Sequence record: ON528745
Strand: one strand, 5' to 3'
DNA: 64,000 nucleotides
Source: Shigella phage ESH35
In this document: piece after piece, positions 5,553 through 51,678 of the stretch
Position numbering within the stretch: position 1 is the stretch's first letter
How the letters are laid out: every line of letters begins with the position of its first letter
Position numbers and translations under genes: made by a program
Notes under the pieces: model-generated
What the model saw: the letters and a program-made list of their open reading frames with translations, nothing else
What the model was told of the DNA's origin: nothing
The model's database searches: none

Positions 5553-5753
5553 ATGAATCCTGAATCTAAATTATCGCAACGAATTGCTGAAGCTCGTCGC
5601 CAGTTCTTTGAAAATATGATAGCCCAGGGTATTGATGACGAAGTTTTTCTGAACTGGTTTTGGAATCACAAATATTCAAAATGCGCAGGAGCAATATTAA
5701 TATCAGCCGCAATGATGTACGAAGGCTGGAAGGGTGCCAAACAGTTTAGCTAA
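5553..5753 (+). CDS. hypothetical small protein (66 aa)
   Basis: ATG directly after previous stop. Confidence 0.4.
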   Translation: MNPESKLSQRIAEARRQFFENMIAQGIDDEVFLNWFWNHKYSKCAGAILISAAMMYEGWKGAKQFS

Positions 5754-5771
5754 GGGCTTCGGCCCTTTTTG
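5753..5771 (+). terminator. rho-independent terminator, UUCG tetraloop hairpin
   Basis: AGGGC-ttcg-GCCCT followed by TTTTT. Confidence 0.65.
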
Positions 5772-7948: not shown

Positions 7949-8122
7949 ATGAACACCCAGACTTCTGAAATAGATTATAATAAAATTCGTTCCTCTAAAG
8001 AGGAAATGATGAGACGCTTTAAAGAGTCTCATGATAAAGCTAAAGCAGAAGGAACTATAAAATATAAGCGCATAAAATTTAAAAGTTCTAACGAGCCTCT
8101 GTATGGCGTATTATGTGGATAG
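7949..8122 (+). CDS. hypothetical basic protein (57 aa)
   Basis: ATG ORF ending at the hairpin at 8121. Confidence 0.35.
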   Translation: MNTQTSEIDYNKIRSSKEEMMRRFKESHDKAKAEGTIKYKRIKFKSSNEPLYGVLCG

Positions 8123-8136
8123 GAGCTTCGGCTCCT
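8121..8136 (+). terminator. UUCG-tetraloop hairpin (terminator-like)
   Basis: AGGAGC-ttcg-GCTCCT; weak U tract. Confidence 0.4.
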
Positions 8137-8138
8137 AT

Positions 8139-8164
8139 ATTGCTTTATAAATTTTTGGTAAAAT
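8139..8164 (+). promoter_or_regulatory. MotA-dependent middle promoter for alpha-gt
   Basis: MotA box ATTGCTTTA, 11 bp, then TAAAAT. Confidence 0.55.
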
Positions 8165-8188: not shown

Positions 8189-9391
8189 ATGAAAGTATGT
8201 ATTTTTATGGTTCGAGGTCTTGAAGGTTGTGGTGTAACTAAATTTTCTCTTGAGCAACGTGATTGGTTTATTAAGAATGGTCATGAAGTAACTTTGGTTT
8301 ATGCTAAAGATAAATCATTTACTCGTAATTGCGCGCATGATTATAAATCATTTTCAATTCCGGTTTTATTGGCAAAAGAATATGATAAAACACTTAAGCT
8401 GGTAAATGATTGTGATATTCTAATTATCAATTCAGTTCCTGCTACTTCGGTTGAAGAAGACACTATTAATAACTATAAAAAAATTATTGATAACATTAAA
8501 CCTTCTGTTCGTGTTGTAGTTTATCAACATGACCATTCTTCTCTTTCTTTGCGCCGAAATTTGGGATTAGAAGAAACTGTTCGTCGAGCTGATGTTATTT
8601 TTAGCCATTCTGATAATGGTGATTTTAATAAAGTTCTGATGAAAGAATGGTATCCTGAAACAGTTTCTCTGTTTGATGATATTGAAGAAGCACCGACAGT
8701 ATATAACTTTCAGCCTCCTATGGATATTGCGAAGGTTCGGTCAACCTACTGGAAAGATGTTTCTGAAATTAACATGAATATCAACCGTTGGATTGGTCGT
8801 ACGACCACATGGAAAGGTTTTTATCAGATGTTTGATTTTCATGAAAAACATCTTAAACCTGCAGGACTAAGTACTATTATGGAAGGTCTGGAACGTTCTC
8901 CAGCGTTCATTCCTATTAAAGAAAAAGGAATTCCATACGAGTATTATCGTCTTCATCAAGTAGACCAAATTAAAATTGCTCCTAATTTGCCAACGCAAAT
9001 TCTTGACCGTTATGTAAATAGCGAAATGCTTGAACGTATGAGTAAATCCGGATTTGGTTATCAGTTGAGTAAGTTGGATAAAAAATATCTACAGCGTTCT
9101 TTAGAATATACTCATCTCGAGCTTGGTGCATGTGGAACAATTCCGGTATTTTGGAAATCTACTGGCGAAAATTTAAAATTCCGTGTTGATAATACTCCTT
9201 TGACCTCGCATGATAGCGGTATCATTTGGTTTGATGAAAATGATATGGAATCAACATTTGAACGTATTAAAGAACTGTCATCTGACCGAGCTCTTTATGA
9301 CCGTGAGCGAGAAAAAGCATATGAATTTTTGTATCAGCATCAAGATTCAAGCTTCTGCTTTAAAGAACAGTTTGACATTATTACAAAATAA
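8189..9391 (+). CDS. agt: DNA alpha-glucosyltransferase
   Basis: 400 aa; near-identical to recalled T4 alpha-gt. Confidence 0.92.
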   Translation: MKVCIFMVRGLEGCGVTKFSLEQRDWFIKNGHEVTLVYAKDKSFTRNCAHDYKSFSIPVLLAKEYDKTLKLVNDCDILIINSVPATSVEEDTINNYKKIIDNIKPSVRVVVYQHDHSSLSLRRNLGLEETVRRADVIFSHSDNGDFNKVLMKEWYPETVSLFDDIEEAPTVYNFQPPMDIAKVRSTYWKDVSEINMNINRWIGRTTTWKGFYQMFDFHEKHLKPAGLSTIMEGLERSPAFIPIKEKGIPYEYYRLHQVDQIKIAPNLPTQILDRYVNSEMLERMSKSGFGYQLSKLDKKYLQRSLEYTHLELGACGTIPVFWKSTGENLKFRVDNTPLTSHDSGIIWFDENDMESTFERIKELSSDRALYDREREKAYEFLYQHQDSSFCFKEQFDIITK

Positions 9392-9405
9392 AGGGCTTCG
9401 GCCCT
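9392..9405 (+). terminator. UUCG-tetraloop hairpin after alpha-gt
   Basis: AGGGC-ttcg-GCCCT then TTT. Confidence 0.5.
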
Positions 9406-9432
9406 TTAGCTTTATACGGAGTTTGATATAAT
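9406..9432 (+). promoter_or_regulatory. middle-promoter-like element for gene 47
   Basis: TTAGCTTTA (one mismatch to MotA box), 12 bp, then TATAAT. Confidence 0.45.
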
Positions 9433-9571
9433 GATATTTCTTGGATATGTGATACTTTTTCTTGCATTTTATCTATTCACTAGAGCATGCTGGATTGGGT
9501 TCTTTAGCACTCCAGATGGATTTATTTCAATAATTTTATTTTGCATTTCAATGACGGTTCTTGATATATGA
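9431..9571 (+). CDS. small membrane protein (46 aa), doubtful
   Basis: ATG ORF, two hydrophobic segments; start sits inside the putative -10. Confidence 0.25.
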   Translation: MIFLGYVILFLAFYLFTRACWIGFFSTPDGFISIILFCISMTVLDI

Positions 9572-10587
9572 AAATTTTAAATTTAGGTGATTGGCATTTA
9601 GGCGTTAAAGCCGATGATGAGTGGGTTCAATCCATTCAGTTAGATGGAATTAAACAAGCAATAGAATATTCTAAGAAAAATGGAATTACTACCTGGATTC
9701 AATATGGTGATATTTTTGATGTGCGAAAAGCAATCACACATAAAACTATGGAGTTCGCTCGTGAAATAGTTCAAATGCTTGATGATGCTGGTATTACCCT
9801 GCATACTGTTGTAGGAAACCATGATATGCACTTTAAAAATACTTTAACTCCAAATGCCTCTACTGAGCTTTTGGCTAAATATCCTAATGTTAAAGTATAT
9901 GATAAGCCTACTACAGTAGATTTTGACGGATGTTTAATTGATTTAATTCCTTGGATGTGTGAAGAAAATACTGGTGAAATTCTCGAGCACATAAAAACTT
10001 CTTCTGCTTCTTTTTGTGTTGGTCACTGGGAACTGAATGGATTTTATTTTTATAAAGGAATGAAATCTCACGGTCTTGAACCTGATTTCCTTAAGACTTA
10101 TAAAGAGGTGTGGTCTGGTCACTTCCATACTATTTCTGAGGCTGCAAACGTCAGATATATTGGGACACCATGGACACTAACTGCAGGTGACGAGAATGAC
10201 CCTCGTGGGTTCTGGATGTTTGATACAGAAACAGAACGAATGGAATTTATTCCAAACAACACTACCTGGCATCGTAGAATTCATTATCCATTTAAAGGAA
10301 AAATTGACTATAAAGATTTTACAAATCTATCAGTACGTGTTATAGTAACTGAAGTAGACAAAAATCTAACGAAGTTCGAATCTGAACTAGAAAAAGTTGT
10401 GCATTCGTTACGAGTTGTGTCAAAGATTGATAACTCTGTCGAGTCAGATGACAGTGAAGAAGTTGAAGTTCAATCTCTTCAGACGTTGATGGAAGAATAC
10501 ATTAATGCAATTCCAGACATCACTGATTCTGACCGCGAAGCACTTATTCAATATGCAAATCAGTTATATGTAGAGGCAACGCAATGA
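9568..10587 (+). CDS. 47: recombination endonuclease subunit (Mre11/SbcD-like)
   Basis: 339 aa; phosphoesterase motifs (GDWH, GNHD, GHFH). Confidence 0.92.
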   Translation: MKILNLGDWHLGVKADDEWVQSIQLDGIKQAIEYSKKNGITTWIQYGDIFDVRKAITHKTMEFAREIVQMLDDAGITLHTVVGNHDMHFKNTLTPNASTELLAKYPNVKVYDKPTTVDFDGCLIDLIPWMCEENTGEILEHIKTSSASFCVGHWELNGFYFYKGMKSHGLEPDFLKTYKEVWSGHFHTISEAANVRYIGTPWTLTAGDENDPRGFWMFDTETERMEFIPNNTTWHRRIHYPFKGKIDYKDFTNLSVRVIVTEVDKNLTKFESELEKVVHSLRVVSKIDNSVESDDSEEVEVQSLQTLMEEYINAIPDITDSDREALIQYANQLYVEATQ

Positions 10588-11034: not shown

Positions 11035-12719
11035 AGAATTTTAAACTAAACCGAGTTAGGTATCAAAATATAATGTCAGTAGGTGGAAATCCTATTGACA
11101 TTCAATTAGATAAGGTTCAAAAAACTCTTATTACTGGACGAAATGGCGGTGGTAAGTCTACTATGTTAGAAGCCATCACATTTGGGCTTTTTGGCAAGCC
11201 ATTTCGTGATGTAAAGAAAGGTCAATTAATAAACAGCACAAATAAGAAAGAACTTTTAGTTGAACTGTGGATGGAATATGATGAGAAAAAGTACTATATC
11301 AAAAGAGGACAAAAACCAAACGTTTTCGAAATCACCGTTAACGGTACACGTCTTAATGAATCTGCCAGCAGTAAAGATTTCCAAGCAGAATTTGAACAGC
11401 TTATCGGAATGTCATATGCCAGTTTCAAGCAGATTGTTGTCCTTGGTACAGCAGGGTATACCCCTTTCATGGGTTTGTCGACCCCTGCACGAAGAAAGCT
11501 TGTGGAAGACCTGCTTGAGGTAGGAACATTAGCTGAAATGGATAAGCTTAATAAAGCACTAATACGTGAATTAAATTCACAAAACCAAGTGCTTGATGTT
11601 AAAAAAGATAGTATTATCCAACAAATTAAAATATATAATGATAACGTTGAACGCCAGAAAAAATTAACTGGTGACAACCTTACTCGTCTTCAAAATATGT
11701 ATGATGATTTGGCAAAAGAAGCTAGAACGCTAAAATCAGAAATAGAAGAAGCTAATGAAAGATTAGTTAATATTGTTTTAGACGAAGACCCGACTGATGC
11801 ATTTAATAAAATCGGTCAAGAAGCAGTTTTAATTAAATCAAAAATTGACTCGTATAATAAAGTCATTAATATGTATCATGAAGGTGGATTATGTCCAACC
11901 TGCTTGTCACAATTAAGTTCCGGTGATAAAGTTGTTTCTAAAATTAAAGATAAAGTTTCTGAATGTACGCATTCGTTTGAACAGCTTTCAACACATCGTG
12001 ATAATTTAAAAGTTCTTGTTGATGAATACCGAGATAATATTAAAACCCAGCAGTCGTTGGCAAATGATATTCGCAATAAAAAGCAATCTCTAATCACGAC
12101 GGTAGATAAAGCTAAAAAAGTTAAAGCAGCTATAGAAAAAGCATCTTCTGAGTTTATTGACCATGCTGATGAAATAGCATTGCTTCAAGAAGAACTTGAT
12201 AAAATTGTTAAGACAAAAACTAATTTAGTAATGGAAAAATACCACCGAGGAATTTTGACTGATATGCTCAAAGATTCTGGTATTAAAGGTGCTATTATTA
12301 AAAAGTACATTCCATTATTTAATAAGCAGATTAACCATTATCTTAAAATAATGGAAGCGGATTATGTGTTTACATTAGATGAAGAATTTAATGAGACAAT
12401 TAAATCCCGTGGTCGTGAAGATTTTAGTTATGCTTCATTCAGTCAAGGTGAAAAAGCGCGAATTGATATTGCTCTTTTATTTACTTGGCGTGATATTGCT
12501 GAAAAAGTTTCAGGTGTTAAAATAAGTTGTTTATTTCTTGATGAAGTGTATGACGGTGCATTTGATGCTGAAGGCATTAAAAATGTAGCTAAAATTTTAG
12601 ATGGTTTGAAGGATACCAACTTCTTCATAATTTCGCATAAAGACCATGATCCGCAGGATTATGGACAGCATATTAAAATGGAAAAAGTTGGTAGATTTAG
12701 TGTTGCCACTATTAATTAA
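11031..12719 (+). CDS. 46: recombination endonuclease subunit (Rad50/SbcC-like ATPase)
   Basis: 562 aa, GTG start; Walker A GRNGGGKST, CPTC zinc hook, long coiled coil, C-terminal Walker B. Confidence 0.92.
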   Translation: MKNFKLNRVRYQNIMSVGGNPIDIQLDKVQKTLITGRNGGGKSTMLEAITFGLFGKPFRDVKKGQLINSTNKKELLVELWMEYDEKKYYIKRGQKPNVFEITVNGTRLNESASSKDFQAEFEQLIGMSYASFKQIVVLGTAGYTPFMGLSTPARRKLVEDLLEVGTLAEMDKLNKALIRELNSQNQVLDVKKDSIIQQIKIYNDNVERQKKLTGDNLTRLQNMYDDLAKEARTLKSEIEEANERLVNIVLDEDPTDAFNKIGQEAVLIKSKIDSYNKVINMYHEGGLCPTCLSQLSSGDKVVSKIKDKVSECTHSFEQLSTHRDNLKVLVDEYRDNIKTQQSLANDIRNKKQSLITTVDKAKKVKAAIEKASSEFIDHADEIALLQEELDKIVKTKTNLVMEKYHRGILTDMLKDSGIKGAIIKKYIPLFNKQINHYLKIMEADYVFTLDEEFNETIKSRGREDFSYASFSQGEKARIDIALLFTWRDIAEKVSGVKISCLFLDEVYDGAFDAEGIKNVAKILDGLKDTNFFIISHKDHDPQDYGQHIKMEKVGRFSVATIN

Positions 12720-13429
12720 TGTTTGTGCTTACAGTTATCATTATGCCACCTTGATAAATTTCCGAAAGTGGTAACTTTACCACAATGGACGCAAGTACCA
12801 GTCTTTTCAGTTTTCTTGCGTCCATTTGGATTTTTCTTGCAGAAATTTCTATGCGCTGCGATAACGCATTTCTTGCCTATCATTCCGCAGAATTCGCAGG
12901 ATGTTTCTTCAAGAATGATTGCTTTAAGCCCGTTTGAGATATTATTTCTGTGTTCTTTAGACATCGGTGGTCTAACTTTAGGATTAGGGTGATTCGGGCA
13001 GTTATCAAAATGCCATCGATTCATATTCCCGCTTAATCCGGACTTACCGCAATGTGGACAAGTTAGTCTTGCTTTATTAGCTACTGCATCAGACATTTTC
13101 TTTCGTGTCTCCTGGGAGAATTCTTTATTCTTTTCTATTTCCCAGAGTTTACGACGAATCCAACCGAAAGTTTTATTGTTACGTTTAGCGTATTTCGTGG
13201 AAACTGTCATCATGTTAGCAGCATAGACTAATTTTGGTTCAGAAGGATAAATTTTTACTAAAAGTTGATGAGCTACATAGTGCTCTTCCGGTGTTAAATC
13301 TACTAAGTTTGAAGCATCATCGCTGCCATTTAAACAGCGTGGTATAATGTGATGAGATTCAGTATAGCAATCAAGTTTTCGAGATTTAGCATTAGAGATT
13401 AACTTTTCATAAATTAGTTTATAATTCAT
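12716..13429 (-). mobile_element. free-standing HNH homing endonuclease with three C-x2-C...H...C zinc-knuckle repeats
   Basis: N-terminal HNH motif (SHHIIPR...NLVDLTPEEH); antisense to neighbours; 4-bp tail-to-tail overlap with gene 46. Confidence 0.75.
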
Positions 13430-14126: not shown

Positions 14127-14813
14127 ATGAAACTGTCTAAAGATACTACTGCTCTGCTTAAAAATTTCGCTACTATTAACTCTGGTATTATGCTTAAATC
14201 AGGTCAATTTATTATGACTCGTGCGGTTAATGGTACAACTTATGCGGAAGCAAATATTTCTGACGTTATTGATTTTGATGTAGCAATTTACGATTTGAAC
14301 GGTTTTCTCGGTATTCTGTCTCTAGTTAATGATGATGCAGAAATTTCCCAGTCAGAAGATGGAAATATTAAAATTGCTGATGCCCGCTCAACAATTTTTT
14401 GGCCAGCAGCCGATCCGAGTACAGTAGTTGCTCCTAATAAACCAATTCCATTCCCGGTAGCATCTGTTGTTACTGAAATTAAAGCTGAAGACCTTCAACA
14501 GCTGTTGCGTGTATCTCGTGGTCTGCAGATTGATACAATTGCTATCACGGTAAAAGAAGGTAAAATCGTAATTAACGGTTTTAATAAAGTAGAAGATTCT
14601 GCTCTTACCCGTGTTAAATATTCTTTGACTCTTGGTGATTATGATGGTGAAAATACATTTAATTTCATTATCAATATGGCAAATATGAAAATGCAACCAG
14701 GAAATTATAAACTTCTGCTCTGGGCAAAAGGTAAACAAGGCGCTGCTAAATTTGAAGGTGAACACGCGAATTATGTAGTAGCTCTTGAAGCTGATTCTAC
14801 CCACGATTTTTAA
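14127..14813 (+). CDS. 45: sliding clamp
   Basis: 228 aa; position in the 45-44-62 operon. Confidence 0.92.
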   Translation: MKLSKDTTALLKNFATINSGIMLKSGQFIMTRAVNGTTYAEANISDVIDFDVAIYDLNGFLGILSLVNDDAEISQSEDGNIKIADARSTIFWPAADPSTVVAPNKPIPFPVASVVTEIKAEDLQQLLRVSRGLQIDTIAITVKEGKIVINGFNKVEDSALTRVKYSLTLGDYDGENTFNFIINMANMKMQPGNYKLLLWAKGKQGAAKFEGEHANYVVALEADSTHDF

Positions 14814-14816
14814 TAG

Positions 14817-14832
14817 AGGGCTTCGGCCCTTT
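14817..14832 (+). terminator. UUCG-tetraloop hairpin after gene 45
   Basis: AGGGC-ttcg-GCCCT then TTT. Confidence 0.5.
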
Positions 14833-14864
14833 ATAATTTACACTAAAACTTGAATGAGGAAATT

Positions 14865-16982: not shown

Positions 16983-16986
16983 GCAA

Positions 16987-17006
16987 GGGGCTTCGGCCCC
17001 TTATTT
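16987..17006 (+). terminator. UUCG-tetraloop terminator
   Basis: GGGGC-ttcg-GCCCC then TTATTT. Confidence 0.6.
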
Positions 17007-17023
17007 GGAGTATAATATATCAA

Positions 17024-36040: not shown

Positions 36041-36723
36041 TGTTTGATTTTATTATAGATTTTGAAACGATGGGAAGCGGTGAAAAAGCAGCTGTTATTG
36101 ATTTGGCTGTAATTGCTTTTGACCCTAACCCGGAAGTTGTTGAAACATTCGATGAACTAGTTTCACGTGGCATTAAAATTAAATTTGACTTAAAAAGTCA
36201 AAAAGGACATCGTCTTTTTACTAAAAGCACTATCGAATGGTGGAAGAATCAATCTCCTGAAGCTAGAAAAAATATTGCACCATCAGATGAAGATGTAAGC
36301 ACTATCGATGGTATTGCAAAATTCAATGATTACATCAATGCACATAACATCGATCCTTGGAAATCTCAAGGTTGGTGCCGTGGAATGTCGTTTGATTTTC
36401 CAATTTTAGTCGATCTCATTCGCGATATTCAACGTCTTAACGGCGTTTCCGAGAATGAGCTTGATACATTTAAGTTAGAACCGTGTAAATTCTGGAATCA
36501 ACGCGACATTCGTACTAGAATTGAAGCACTTCTCCTTGTTCGTGATATGACCACTTGTCCTCTTCCAAAGGGAACTTTAGATGGATTCGTTGCACATGAT
36601 TCTATTCATGACTGTGCGAAAGACATCCTGATGATGAAGTATGCTTTGCGATACGCTATGGGTCTTGAAGATGCTCCGTCAGAGGAAGAGTGCGATCCTC
36701 TGTCTCTTCCAACAAAACGATAA
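36040..36723 (+). CDS. dexA: exonuclease A
   Basis: 227 aa; DEDD-type motif FETMG near N-terminus. Confidence 0.85.
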   Translation: MFDFIIDFETMGSGEKAAVIDLAVIAFDPNPEVVETFDELVSRGIKIKFDLKSQKGHRLFTKSTIEWWKNQSPEARKNIAPSDEDVSTIDGIAKFNDYINAHNIDPWKSQGWCRGMSFDFPILVDLIRDIQRLNGVSENELDTFKLEPCKFWNQRDIRTRIEALLLVRDMTTCPLPKGTLDGFVAHDSIHDCAKDILMMKYALRYAMGLEDAPSEEECDPLSLPTKR

Positions 36724-39952: not shown

Positions 39953-40218
39953 AAATTATGAAATATATTAATCGTTCTATCGCGGCATTAGTATTAGCAG
40001 TGTCTTTAGCAGGATGTACTGATGCTGATAATGCAACCAAAGTTTTATCTTCAAGTGGTTTTACTAATATTGAAATCACTGGATATAATTGGTTTGGTTG
40101 TTCTGAAAATGATTTCCAACATACTGGATTTCGTGCTATTGGACCTACTGGGCAGAAAGTAGAAGGAACAGTATGTTCTGGGCTGTTCTTTAAGGATTCA
40201 ACTATTCGTTTTAAATAA
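39949..40218 (+). CDS. putative lipoprotein (89 aa)
   Basis: signal peptide with lipobox LAGC. Confidence 0.5.
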   Translation: MKIMKYINRSIAALVLAVSLAGCTDADNATKVLSSSGFTNIEITGYNWFGCSENDFQHTGFRAIGPTGQKVEGTVCSGLFFKDSTIRFK

Positions 40219-40219
40219 A

Positions 40220-40233
40220 AGGCCTTCGGGCCT
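40220..40233 (+). terminator. UUCG-tetraloop hairpin
   Basis: AGGCC-ttcg-GGCCT then TTT. Confidence 0.5.
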
Positions 40234-40260
40234 TTAGCTTTATGATTGCCGGAGTATAAT
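40234..40260 (+). promoter_or_regulatory. middle-promoter-like element for gene 39
   Basis: TTAGCTTTA, 12 bp, TATAAT; same module as upstream of gene 47. Confidence 0.45.
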
Positions 40261-44562: not shown

Positions 44563-45501
44563 ATGTACAATATTAAATGCCTGACCAAAAACGAACAAGC
44601 TGAAATTGTTAAGCTGTATTCAAGTGGTAATTACACCCAACAGGAATTGGCTGATTGGCAAGGTGTATCGGTTGACACAATTCGTCGTGTTTTGAAAAAT
44701 GCTGAAGAAGCTAAACGCTCTAAAGTTACTATTAGCGGTGATATTACAATTAAAGTTAATAGCGATGCAGTTATTGCTCCAGTTGCTAAATCTGACATTA
44801 TTTGGAATGCATCTAAAAAATTCATTTCAATTACTGTTGACGGTGTAACTTATAACGCAACTCCTAATACTCATTCAAACTTCCAGGAAATTCTTAATCT
44901 GCTTGTAGCAGATAAGTTGGAAGAAGCGGCACAAAAAATTAATGTTCGTCGCGCTGTTGAAAAATATATTTCCGGCGATGTTCGAATTGAAGGCGGAAGC
45001 TTGTTCTATCAAAATATCGAATTACGGTCTGGTTTAGTTGATCGTATTCTCGATTCGATGGAAAAAGGTGAAAACTTTGAATTTTATTTTCCGTTCTTGG
45101 AAAATCTGCTGGAAAACCCAAGCCAGAAAGCGGTATCTCGACTCTTTGATTTCTTGGTAGCAAACGATATTGAAATTACAGAAGATGGTTACTTCTATGC
45201 TTGGAAAGTAGTTCGTGACAACTACTTTGACTGTCACTCAAACACCTTTGATAACAGTCCTGGTAAAGTAGTTAAAATGCCGCGTACTCGTGTGAATGAC
45301 GATGATACACAAACTTGTTCTCGTGGTCTGCATGTGTGTTCTAAATCTTATATTCGTCACTTTGGCAGTTCAACCAGCCGAGTTGTAAAAGTTAAAGTAC
45401 ATCCACGTGATGTAGTATCAATTCCGATTGATTACAACGATGCTAAAATGCGTACCTGCCAATACGAAGTAGTTGAAGACGTTACTGAACAATTTAAATA
45501 A
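44563..45501 (+). CDS. rIIB: rIIB protein
   Basis: 312 aa as in T4, immediately after rIIA. Confidence 0.88.
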   Translation: MYNIKCLTKNEQAEIVKLYSSGNYTQQELADWQGVSVDTIRRVLKNAEEAKRSKVTISGDITIKVNSDAVIAPVAKSDIIWNASKKFISITVDGVTYNATPNTHSNFQEILNLLVADKLEEAAQKINVRRAVEKYISGDVRIEGGSLFYQNIELRSGLVDRILDSMEKGENFEFYFPFLENLLENPSQKAVSRLFDFLVANDIEITEDGYFYAWKVVRDNYFDCHSNTFDNSPGKVVKMPRTRVNDDDTQTCSRGLHVCSKSYIRHFGSSTSRVVKVKVHPRDVVSIPIDYNDAKMRTCQYEVVEDVTEQFK

Positions 45502-45514
45502 GGGCTTCGGCCCT
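45501..45514 (+). terminator. UUCG-tetraloop hairpin after rIIB
   Basis: AGGGC-ttcg-GCCCT; weak U tract. Confidence 0.4.
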
Positions 45515-45533
45515 TATCATATTAAGGAAAATT

Positions 45534-45731: not shown

Positions 45732-45755
45732 AAGGGCTTCGGCCCTTTTGTTTTA
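45732..45755 (+). terminator. rho-independent terminator
   Basis: AAGGGC-ttcg-GCCCTT then TTTGTTTT. Confidence 0.7.
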
Positions 45756-48950: not shown

Positions 48951-49586
48951 ATGTCTAAAGTAACTTACATCATCAAAGCTTCTAACGATGTTCTGAATGA
49001 AAAAACTGCTGCGATTTTAATTACTATTGCTAAGAAAGATTTCATTACAGCTGCAGAAGTTCGTGAGGTGCATCCAGATTTAGGTAACGCAGTAGTTAAT
49101 AGTAATATTGGGGTATTGATTAAAAAAGGCCTGGTGGAGAAATCTGGTGATGGATTAATCATTACAGGTGAAGCTCAGGATATTATTTCAAACGCAGCAA
49201 CTTTATACGCGCAGGAAAATGCTCCGGAACTGCTGAAAAAACGAGCAACTCGTAAAGCTCGTGAGATTACTTCTGATATGGAAGAAGATAAAGACCTCAT
49301 GTTAAAACTTTTAGATGAAAATGGATTTGTTCTTAAAAAGGTCGAAACTTATCGCAGTAACTATCTCGCTATTTTAGAAAAACGCACTCACGGAATTCGT
49401 AATTTTGAAATTAACAATAATGGAAATATGCGAATTTTTGGATACAAAATGATGGAACATCATATTCAGAAATTTACTGATATCGGAATGTCATGTAAAA
49501 TCGCTAAAAACGGTAATGTGTATCTTGACATTAAACGTTCAGCAGAAAACATTGAAGCTGTAATCACTGTAGCATCTGAACTGTGA
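48951..49586 (+). CDS. motA: middle-transcription activator MotA
   Basis: 211 aa as in T4, upstream of asiA. Confidence 0.8.
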   Translation: MSKVTYIIKASNDVLNEKTAAILITIAKKDFITAAEVREVHPDLGNAVVNSNIGVLIKKGLVEKSGDGLIITGEAQDIISNAATLYAQENAPELLKKRATRKAREITSDMEEDKDLMLKLLDENGFVLKKVETYRSNYLAILEKRTHGIRNFEINNNGNMRIFGYKMMEHHIQKFTDIGMSCKIAKNGNVYLDIKRSAENIEAVITVASEL

Positions 49587-51405: not shown

Positions 51406-51678
51406 ATGAATAAAAATATTGATACAGTTCGTGAAATTATTACTGTTGCGTCTATTTTGATTAAATTTTCCAGAGAAGATATTGTTGAGAATCGTGCTAA
51501 TTTTATTGCATTTCTGAATGAGATTGGAGTAACGCATGAAGGTAGAAAATTAAATCAGAATTCATTCCGTAAAATTGTTTCTGAATTAACCCAAGAAGAT
51601 AAGAAAACCCTCATCGACGAATTCAACGAGGGTTTTGAGGGTGTATATCGATATCTAGAGATGTATACAAACAAATAA
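51406..51678 (+). CDS. asiA: anti-sigma-70 protein AsiA
   Basis: 90 aa; matches recalled T4 AsiA. Confidence 0.9.
   Translation: MNKNIDTVREIITVASILIKFSREDIVENRANFIAFLNEIGVTHEGRKLNQNSFRKIVSELTQEDKKTLIDEFNEGFEGVYRYLEMYTNK

Follow-up and report, generated by a model that had tools for sequence, protein, structure and literature searches.

The window analyzed here, the whole 64,000-nucleotide stretch of DNA from Shigella phage ESH35 in sequence record ON528745, comes from a T4-like phage (Tequatrovirus) with ~99% identity to T4. Two of its regions, here called site 1 and site 2, carry a hairpin, a MotA box, and a -10 element in immediate succession. BLAST searches placed both regions in Tequatrovirus at 99-100% identity, the matches to hundreds of genomes spanning 95-100% and that to T4 itself being ~99%. 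In the T4 genome (AF158101), the counterpart of site 1 lies between a-gt and 47.1/47, and the counterpart of site 2 lies between 39.1 and 39. The genes that matter for both sites, including those for MotA and AsiA, which were located by tblastn, are as follows.

9431..9571, + strand: ORF 47.1 (46 aa), 100% identical to T4 gp47.1
9568..10587, + strand: gene 47 (recombination endonuclease subunit), the gene served by promoter P47
40288..42105, + strand: gene 39 (topoisomerase II large subunit), a single 605-aa ORF
48951..49583, + strand: motA, encoding the MotA-box activator, 98% identical to T4 MotA
51406..51675, + strand: asiA, encoding the co-activator, 100% identical to T4 AsiA

The window differs from T4 in its a-gt protein (91% identical), in the absence of mobB, and in having gene 39 in one piece. 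In T4, gene 39 is split into 39, mobA/60.1, and 60; since it is not split in the window, the gene 60 translational-bypass arrangement is missing from this phage. A 237-aa ORF with homing-endonuclease (HNH) character lies at 12716-13429 on the - strand, between gene 46 and 45.2, where T4 has no gene at the equivalent position; its product has 43% identity to the N-terminal half of T4 MobB.

Site 1 has the sequence aaaaTAAAGGGC[TTCG]GCCCTTTAGCTTTAtacggagtttgaTATAATg, and site 2 has the sequence aaataAAAGGCC[TTCG]GGCCTTTAGCTTTAtgattgccggagTATAATa. Their parts are as follows.

9389..9408, + strand: site 1 hairpin TAAAGGGC[TTCG]GCCCTTTA at the end of a-gt, from sequence and folding
9405..9414, + strand: MotA box TTTAGCTTTA of P47, matching the consensus wwwTGCTTtA (PMC2988021) at 9 of 10 positions
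9418..9421, + strand: GGAG in the P47 spacer, probably the Shine-Dalgarno sequence of ORF 47.1 on read-through RNA and also a RegB-type motif
9427..9432, + strand: sigma-70 -10 element TATAAT of P47, 12 bp past the MotA box
~9439, + strand: predicted transcription start of P47, equivalent to T4 36576 (0 substitutions in 51 nt compared with T4)
40218..40235, + strand: site 2 hairpin AAAGGCC[TTCG]GGCCTTT at the gene 39.1 stop codon (40216-40218), from sequence and folding
40233..40242, + strand: MotA box TTTAGCTTTA of P39, with a 9/10 consensus match
40251..40254, + strand: GGAG in the P39 spacer
40255..40260, + strand: -10 element TATAAT of P39, 12 bp past the MotA box
~40267, + strand: predicted transcription start of P39, equivalent to T4 5349 (1 spacer substitution in 51 nt compared with T4)

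The preliminary description, made from the sequence alone, had placed one and the same composite element at 9392..9432 and 40220..40260. Direct reading of the sequence bears this out, and a UUCG hairpin directly 5' of TTTAGCTTTA, with 12 bp to TATAAT, is seen at both sites; the coordinates are right except for the stem starts, which are actually at 9389 and 40218. At site 1, the stop codon TAA of a-gt (9389-9391) supplies the first stem bases, and the 3' arm of the hairpin provides the first four bases of the MotA box. The element had also been described as lying upstream of genes 47 and 39. This holds for site 2, but site 1 directly precedes ORF 47.1 and lies 136 nt before the ATG of gene 47 (9568). 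The pattern TTCGGNNNNTTWGCTTTA matches the window twice, with 0.00 matches expected (100 shuffles), and AGCTTTA-N11-13-TATAAT also gives 2 matches, with 0.04 expected. Across AAAGGSCTTCGGSCCTTTAGCTTTAT, the two sites are identical at 24/26 bases, and the two mismatches are the two halves of one compensatory stem change, from G:C to C:G. Folding of 61-nt contexts returned minimum-free-energy structures that contain the hairpin, at -13.1 and -15.0 kcal/mol. No Rfam family was found anywhere in the window at the gathering threshold.

Table 1 of Hinton 2010 gives start coordinates for 58 identified MotA-dependent T4 middle promoters (PMC2988021), and we examined the upstream regions of all 58 mapped starts in AF158101. 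As tabulated there, P47 starts at 36576 and P39 at 5349, with attribution to Guild et al. 1988 and Hsu & Karam 1990. In AF158101 coordinates, these published starts fall exactly 7 nt 3' of each TATAAT. From -45 to +6, P47 of the window is the same as T4 P47 at 51/51 bases, and P39 is the same at 50/51, the one difference being a spacer base. The loci, MotA box, 12-bp spacer, -10 element, and start offset are those of T4 P47 and P39, with no substantive difference. We conclude, with a probability of roughly 85%, that the two elements are this phage's copies of the mapped T4 middle promoters P47 and P39 and that the hairpin acts on upstream RNA.

The MotA box consensus is (a/t)(a/t)(a/t)TGCTTtA, located 12 +/- 1 bp from the -10 element; the box tolerates most one-base changes, and an excellent -10 element is the stricter requirement (PMC2988021). 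At both sites the box is centred near -30, and a perfect TATAAT (TAnnnT type) follows exactly 12 bp downstream, while a sigma-70 consensus scan called no -35/-10 promoter at either. Everything expected of a middle promoter that can be tested on sequence was found, namely, the box, its spacing from the -10 element, the lack of a -35 element, and genes for both MotA and AsiA. The box had been called a possible variant MotA site for having AGCTT in place of TGCTT, which is true only in a trivial sense, given how many single changes MotA tolerates. AGCTT is the box core in 4 of the 58 mapped promoters (P39, P47, Pvs.7, and P30), others have AGCTA (Pagt and Pndd.3) or CGCTT (five promoters), and GGCTT occurs too. 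As AGCTT is found elsewhere among the 58, its A is an ordinary tolerated variant and does not mark a separate class of site.

MotA dependence of P47 and P39 in the present phage is predicted from their identity to the T4 sequences and from the T4 literature. By the mechanism established for T4, AsiA would remodel sigma-70 region 4, MotA would bind the box TTTAGCTTTA centred at -30, and sigma-70 region 2 would contact the perfect TATAAT 12 bp downstream of the box. Transcription would then begin 7 nt past TATAAT, at ~9439 and ~40267. The ATG of ORF 47.1 (9431-9433) overlaps the P47 TATAAT, and the P47 start lies inside the ORF, so the middle transcript is unable to encode gp47.1 from its annotated start; only read-through early RNA could do so.

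At 4 of the 58 mapped T4 middle promoters, namely, P39, P47, PmobB, and P43, a strong hairpin ends 19-33 nt upstream of the start. Correspondingly, the window holds two more hairpin-linked middle promoters (8119-8164 and 16985-17021), which the preliminary description had missed.

8119..8164, + strand: third module, ATAGGAGC[TTCG]GCTCCTAT, then ATTGCTTTA (canonical box), 11 bp, and TAAAAT
16985..17021, + strand: P43 module, hairpin AAGGGGC[TTCG]GCCCCTT, then atttGGAG, then TATAAT, with its start equivalent to T4 29933

The module at 8119-8164 is T4 PmobB/Pa-gt.1 (start 38682). In T4 it drives mobB, whereas in the window, where mobB is absent, the promoter stands directly before a-gt (ATG 8189). 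The P43 hairpin is only 8 nt from TATAAT, with the spacer GGAG at 17007-17010. No properly spaced MotA box was seen at P43; its sole GCTT is in the hairpin loop, and recognition by MotA is not obvious from the sequence. A box register that uses this loop GCTT was rejected, as it would put the -10 element 17 nt after GCTT when 13-15 are expected.

Hairpins of this kind occur in other settings as well. On the + strand of the window there are at least 8 intergenic UUCG hairpins. Those of the form GGGC[TTCG]GCCC that have no middle promoter are found at 5752-5767, 14813-14834, 45498-45517, and 45732-45747 (all + strand, intergenic), and two of these four are followed by T-runs and resemble terminators. 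In T4, T-runs and early promoters come after many of the other hairpins. A different geometry is seen at T4 P45.2 (L004 33260-33295, T4 coordinates, - strand), which lies wholly within an inverted repeat with a 16-bp stem, AGAGATTATGCTTTAA[TTTA]TTAGAGTATAATCTCT, so that in read-through RNA its MotA box pairs with the -10 region. Outside the T4 type, three contigs (L070 7870-7894, L076 2896-2920, and L079 8138-8162) carry AAGGGCTTCGGCCCTTTTGCTTTAT, followed by 11 bp and TAAAAT. In these contigs the hairpin of T4 P47, joined to a canonical T box, precedes a different gene (its product begins MKINILMARG), and so the same cassette recurs at different loci across lineages.

The loci of T4-like relatives were gathered from IMG/VR by gp47 and gp39 protein homology, independently of hairpins, and their upstream regions were then inspected. 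At gp47 loci, a hairpin that abuts a MotA box followed by a -10 element was found in 19 of 28 evaluable cases, upstream of 47/47.1. The stems fall into five families (GGGC/GCCC, GGGCC/GGCCC, GGACC/GGTCC, GGAGC/GCTCC, and GGAAGC/GCTTCC), and the loops are UUCG, UCCG, UUUG, UUAG, or CUAGU. At gp39 loci, the hairpin, MotA box, and -10 element were found in 10/31, with three stem families; some of the remaining loci have the MotA-type promoter but lack the hairpin, and both are missing from the most distant. The loci L045-47 and L049 retain the gene 39 MotA promoter without the hairpin, which indicates that hairpin and promoter can be separated. Pairing is complete in all 17 distinct hairpins, and double changes of GC to CG and GC to AT occur at stem positions 2, 3, and 5. 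Pairs were tabulated by distance from the loop, and a MAFFT alignment of 21 modules was left unused for having lost the stem register. The table includes hairpins that were picked as hairpins, and it therefore demonstrates compensatory variation and is not an unbiased test of covariation; less bias attaches to the fact that the loci themselves were gathered by gp47/gp39 homology. Lineages other than the T4 type have a canonical box (tcTGCTTTc, tttTGCTTTa), and the A-variant box was seen only in T4-type copies, at both loci. The A that these copies share could come from common descent, from gene conversion of the cassette, or from parallel tuning. The CCTTT(T) arm of the stem always runs directly into the box, which means that the T-rich box supplies a U-rich tail.

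The stems are 8 bp (site 1) and 7 bp (site 2) long with 4 GC pairs, and the UUCG loop is closed by C:G. In isolation, the hairpins of the identical T4 copies have energies of -11.0 and -9.7 kcal/mol. T4 mRNA is where C(UUCG)G hairpins were originally observed (Tuerk et al. 1988, described in PMC4371310), and those at sites 1 and 2 are members of this T4 set, with a short GC-rich stem and an intercistronic position. At both sites the hairpin is at or next to a stop codon (a-gt and 39.1) and 31-32 nt upstream of the transcription start. Since it is 5' of +1, the hairpin is absent from the middle transcript and could act only on read-through RNA from a-gt or 39.1. The preliminary description had suggested a coupled attenuator and middle promoter. 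The promoter half agrees with the mapped P47 and P39 (PMC2988021), but attenuation of the middle transcript itself is contradicted by the position of the hairpin; an action on read-through RNA is plausible.

The hairpins have been annotated before. Among records of close relatives, MK327942 labels the one at site 1 'putative transcriptional terminator, -10.80', and in LR215722 a 'terminator' feature spans the one at site 2, both being predictions only. A 1985 T4 entry (X01804) marks the site 1 hairpin as 'dyad symmetry'. In a simple terminator scan of the + strand, neither site passes, since only 4 of the 8 bases that follow the full stem are T. When the stem is limited to its GC core, the tail is UUUAGCUUUA with a U-tract score of ~2.9, compared with 3.2-4.8 in relatives that have the T-variant box and ~5 for strong T4 terminators; only the ranking of these scores is meaningful. 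Judged as intrinsic terminators, the hairpins look weak. For the hairpins of sites 1 and 2, no 3'-end mapping or termination assay was found in the accessible literature, and a literature search for genome-wide 3'-end or terminator maps (Term-seq, cappable-seq) gave nothing on T4 itself.

A precedent exists in T4 mobE, where an internal hairpin terminates 30-50% of transcription in vivo, offset by a downstream middle promoter (PMC2790892). By U-tract score, the tail of the mobE hairpin is even poorer than those of sites 1 and 2. T4 middle genes are also expressed by extension of early transcripts, which requires leakiness, and a leaky terminator and/or a stabilizer of 3' ends would fit. We infer that the hairpins most likely end upstream early transcripts as leaky intrinsic terminators, shield them from 3' exonucleases, or do both. 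The C(UUCG)G hairpin would be part of the early RNA made from the gene before it (a-gt or 39.1), outside the middle transcript, and would end or protect RNA that comes from early promoters farther upstream. In the MotA box, the T-rich 5' half would double as the 3' arm of the hairpin and the U-tract, and the middle promoter past the hairpin would re-supply transcription of genes 47 and 39. The mobE terminator and PnrdB (Wilson & Edgell 2009, PMC2790892) are similar to what we propose here, in that a weak terminator, with a short U-tract in the case of mobE, is followed by a middle promoter that restores expression. They are several hundred bases apart, however, and within a coding region, whereas the hairpin and promoter of P47 and P39 overlap by 3-4 bases.

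The spacer GGAG points to another way in which read-through RNA might be handled. Of the 4 hairpin-linked T4 middle promoters, 3 (P39, P47, and P43) have GGAG between the box and the -10 element, compared with 1 of the 54 others (Fisher p = 5e-4, a post hoc association from only 4 hairpin-linked promoters). RegB has the strong consensus GGAGRAYARAA, targets early transcripts, and spares most middle ones (PMC3014915). The middle transcript starts 3' of GGAG, and only read-through early RNA would thus bear both the hairpin and the RegB site. The hairpin might then be a non-terminating part of an RNA-processing device. RegB would cut the spacer GGAG of read-through RNA and inactivate the downstream part, including the ribosome-binding site of ORF 47.1; 3' exonucleases would shorten the upstream mRNA until they reached the stable UUCG hairpin; and RNA from the middle promoter, begun 3' of GGAG, would be immune. 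This agrees with the known preference of RegB for early over most middle transcripts. The spacers of relatives also speak for it, as they retain TGGAGTATAGAA or TGGAGCATAGAA, which match GGAGRAYARAA at 10/11 positions. Near-consensus RegB sites at the same place in the spacer of relatives were noted as GGAGTATAGAA. The T4-type P47 site (GGAGTTTGATA), however, fits only 3 of the 7 RAYARAA positions after GGAG, and its GGAG is explained more simply as the Shine-Dalgarno sequence of ORF 47.1. The P39 GGAG is predicted to be base-paired, and RNA structure protects from RegB (PMC3014915). No cleavage data for the P47 and P39 sites were found in the literature. With the association itself being post hoc, we regard processing by RegB as an unlikely alternative to the leaky terminator and/or exonuclease barrier.

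The near identity of the two elements raises the question of whether they are related by recombination. Promoter-early stem-loop (PeSL) cassettes combine terminator and promoter activity and have a demonstrated role in recombination (Arbiol et al. 2010, PMC2839356). Promoter-middle stem-loops (PmSLs), consisting of a stem-loop, a TGCTT Mot box, and a -10 element, have been described in Vibrio phage nt-1 (Comeau et al. 2014, PMC4122927). PmSLs, PeSLs, and the elements in the window share an intergenic order, a stem-loop (a terminator/attenuator in PmSLs and PeSLs) that leads into a promoter, after which come a Shine-Dalgarno sequence and the beginning of the following gene. PmSLs, from Vibrio phage nt-1, and PeSLs, from T4 and PST, cluster in hyperplastic regions, near indels, whereas the P47 and P39 cassettes of the window precede conserved core genes. 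The window has two copies identical at 24/26 bases and related ones at 8119 and 16985, and T4 also carries copies of a hairpin with an early promoter. Among the cassettes of the window, the one at 8119 alone adjoins a difference from T4 (the absence of mobB).

Sites 1 and 2 might accordingly be recombining or mobile cassettes of the PmSL type, like PeSLs, made alike by gene conversion or spread and marking modular shuffling, as opposed to products of independent selection. Both have the minority A along with the rest of the common stretch, while orthologous sites in other lineages have T, and the near-identical T cassette AAGGGCTTCGGCCCTTTTGCTTTAT stands before a different gene in the three non-T4-type contigs. 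The 8119 cassette at the mobB presence/absence border, together with the experiments on PeSL-mediated recombination (PMC2839356), points the same way. The common stretch is short, though, and made up entirely of constrained parts (a GC-rich UUCG hairpin and a consensus box), on which convergence is easy. Neither the flanks nor the spacers of the two sites are related, both loci are in conserved core rather than hyperplastic regions, and the mobB difference is explained equally well by homing-endonuclease mobility. On this evidence we think it improbable that shuffling of mobile cassettes accounts for the resemblance.

Far less credible is a role for the inverted repeat on the opposite strand, as a bidirectional terminator of antisense or late RNA, or in the DNA itself, as a cruciform or protein site that modulates the promoter. 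Site 1 does pass the terminator scan on the - strand, where the hairpin is followed by TTTTGTAATA, but site 2 fails it, and no converging - strand genes lie beside either site. The compensatory changes keep the pairing and not the sequence, which argues against a sequence-specific protein site, and the preference for UUCG/UNCG loops concerns RNA stability and applies only to the + strand transcript. A chance match, or ordinary MotA-independent sigma-70 early promoters, was rejected as the least probable explanation of all: some transcription without MotA is possible from a perfect TATAAT alone, but the shuffle expectation is ~0, no acceptable -35 element was called, and P47 and P39 are listed as MotA-dependent (PMC2988021).

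The preferred reading, in which phage copies of P47 and P39 stand behind hairpins that act on upstream RNA, describes an arrangement that is real, conserved, and already known: P47 and P39 were mapped in 1988-1990, UUCG hairpins are classic, and PeSLs and PmSLs were named in 2010-2014. Because that class has been described and both promoters have been mapped, the finding is an instance of a described class at two known promoters. It carries little weight as a discovery, although a real regulatory module was correctly recognized from sequence alone. The small comparative addition is that several T4-like lineages preserve the direct contact of hairpin and MotA box, with compensatory changes in the stem and with the box as the U-rich tail.

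A more speculative proposal, which we rate as doubtful, would join these elements in one three-in-one switch with deliberately superimposed parts. The box would be the U-tract of a leaky terminator, RegB would cut at the spacer GGAG only in read-through RNA behind the hairpin, and the change from T to A in both T4-type copies would tune leakiness and MotA affinity at once. If this is true, T4-like phages would follow a general and unrecognized rule in the design of their hairpin-linked middle promoters. The GGAG association offers a cheap, testable lead, as RegB may treat the early read-through RNA and the middle-promoter RNA of the same gene differently.
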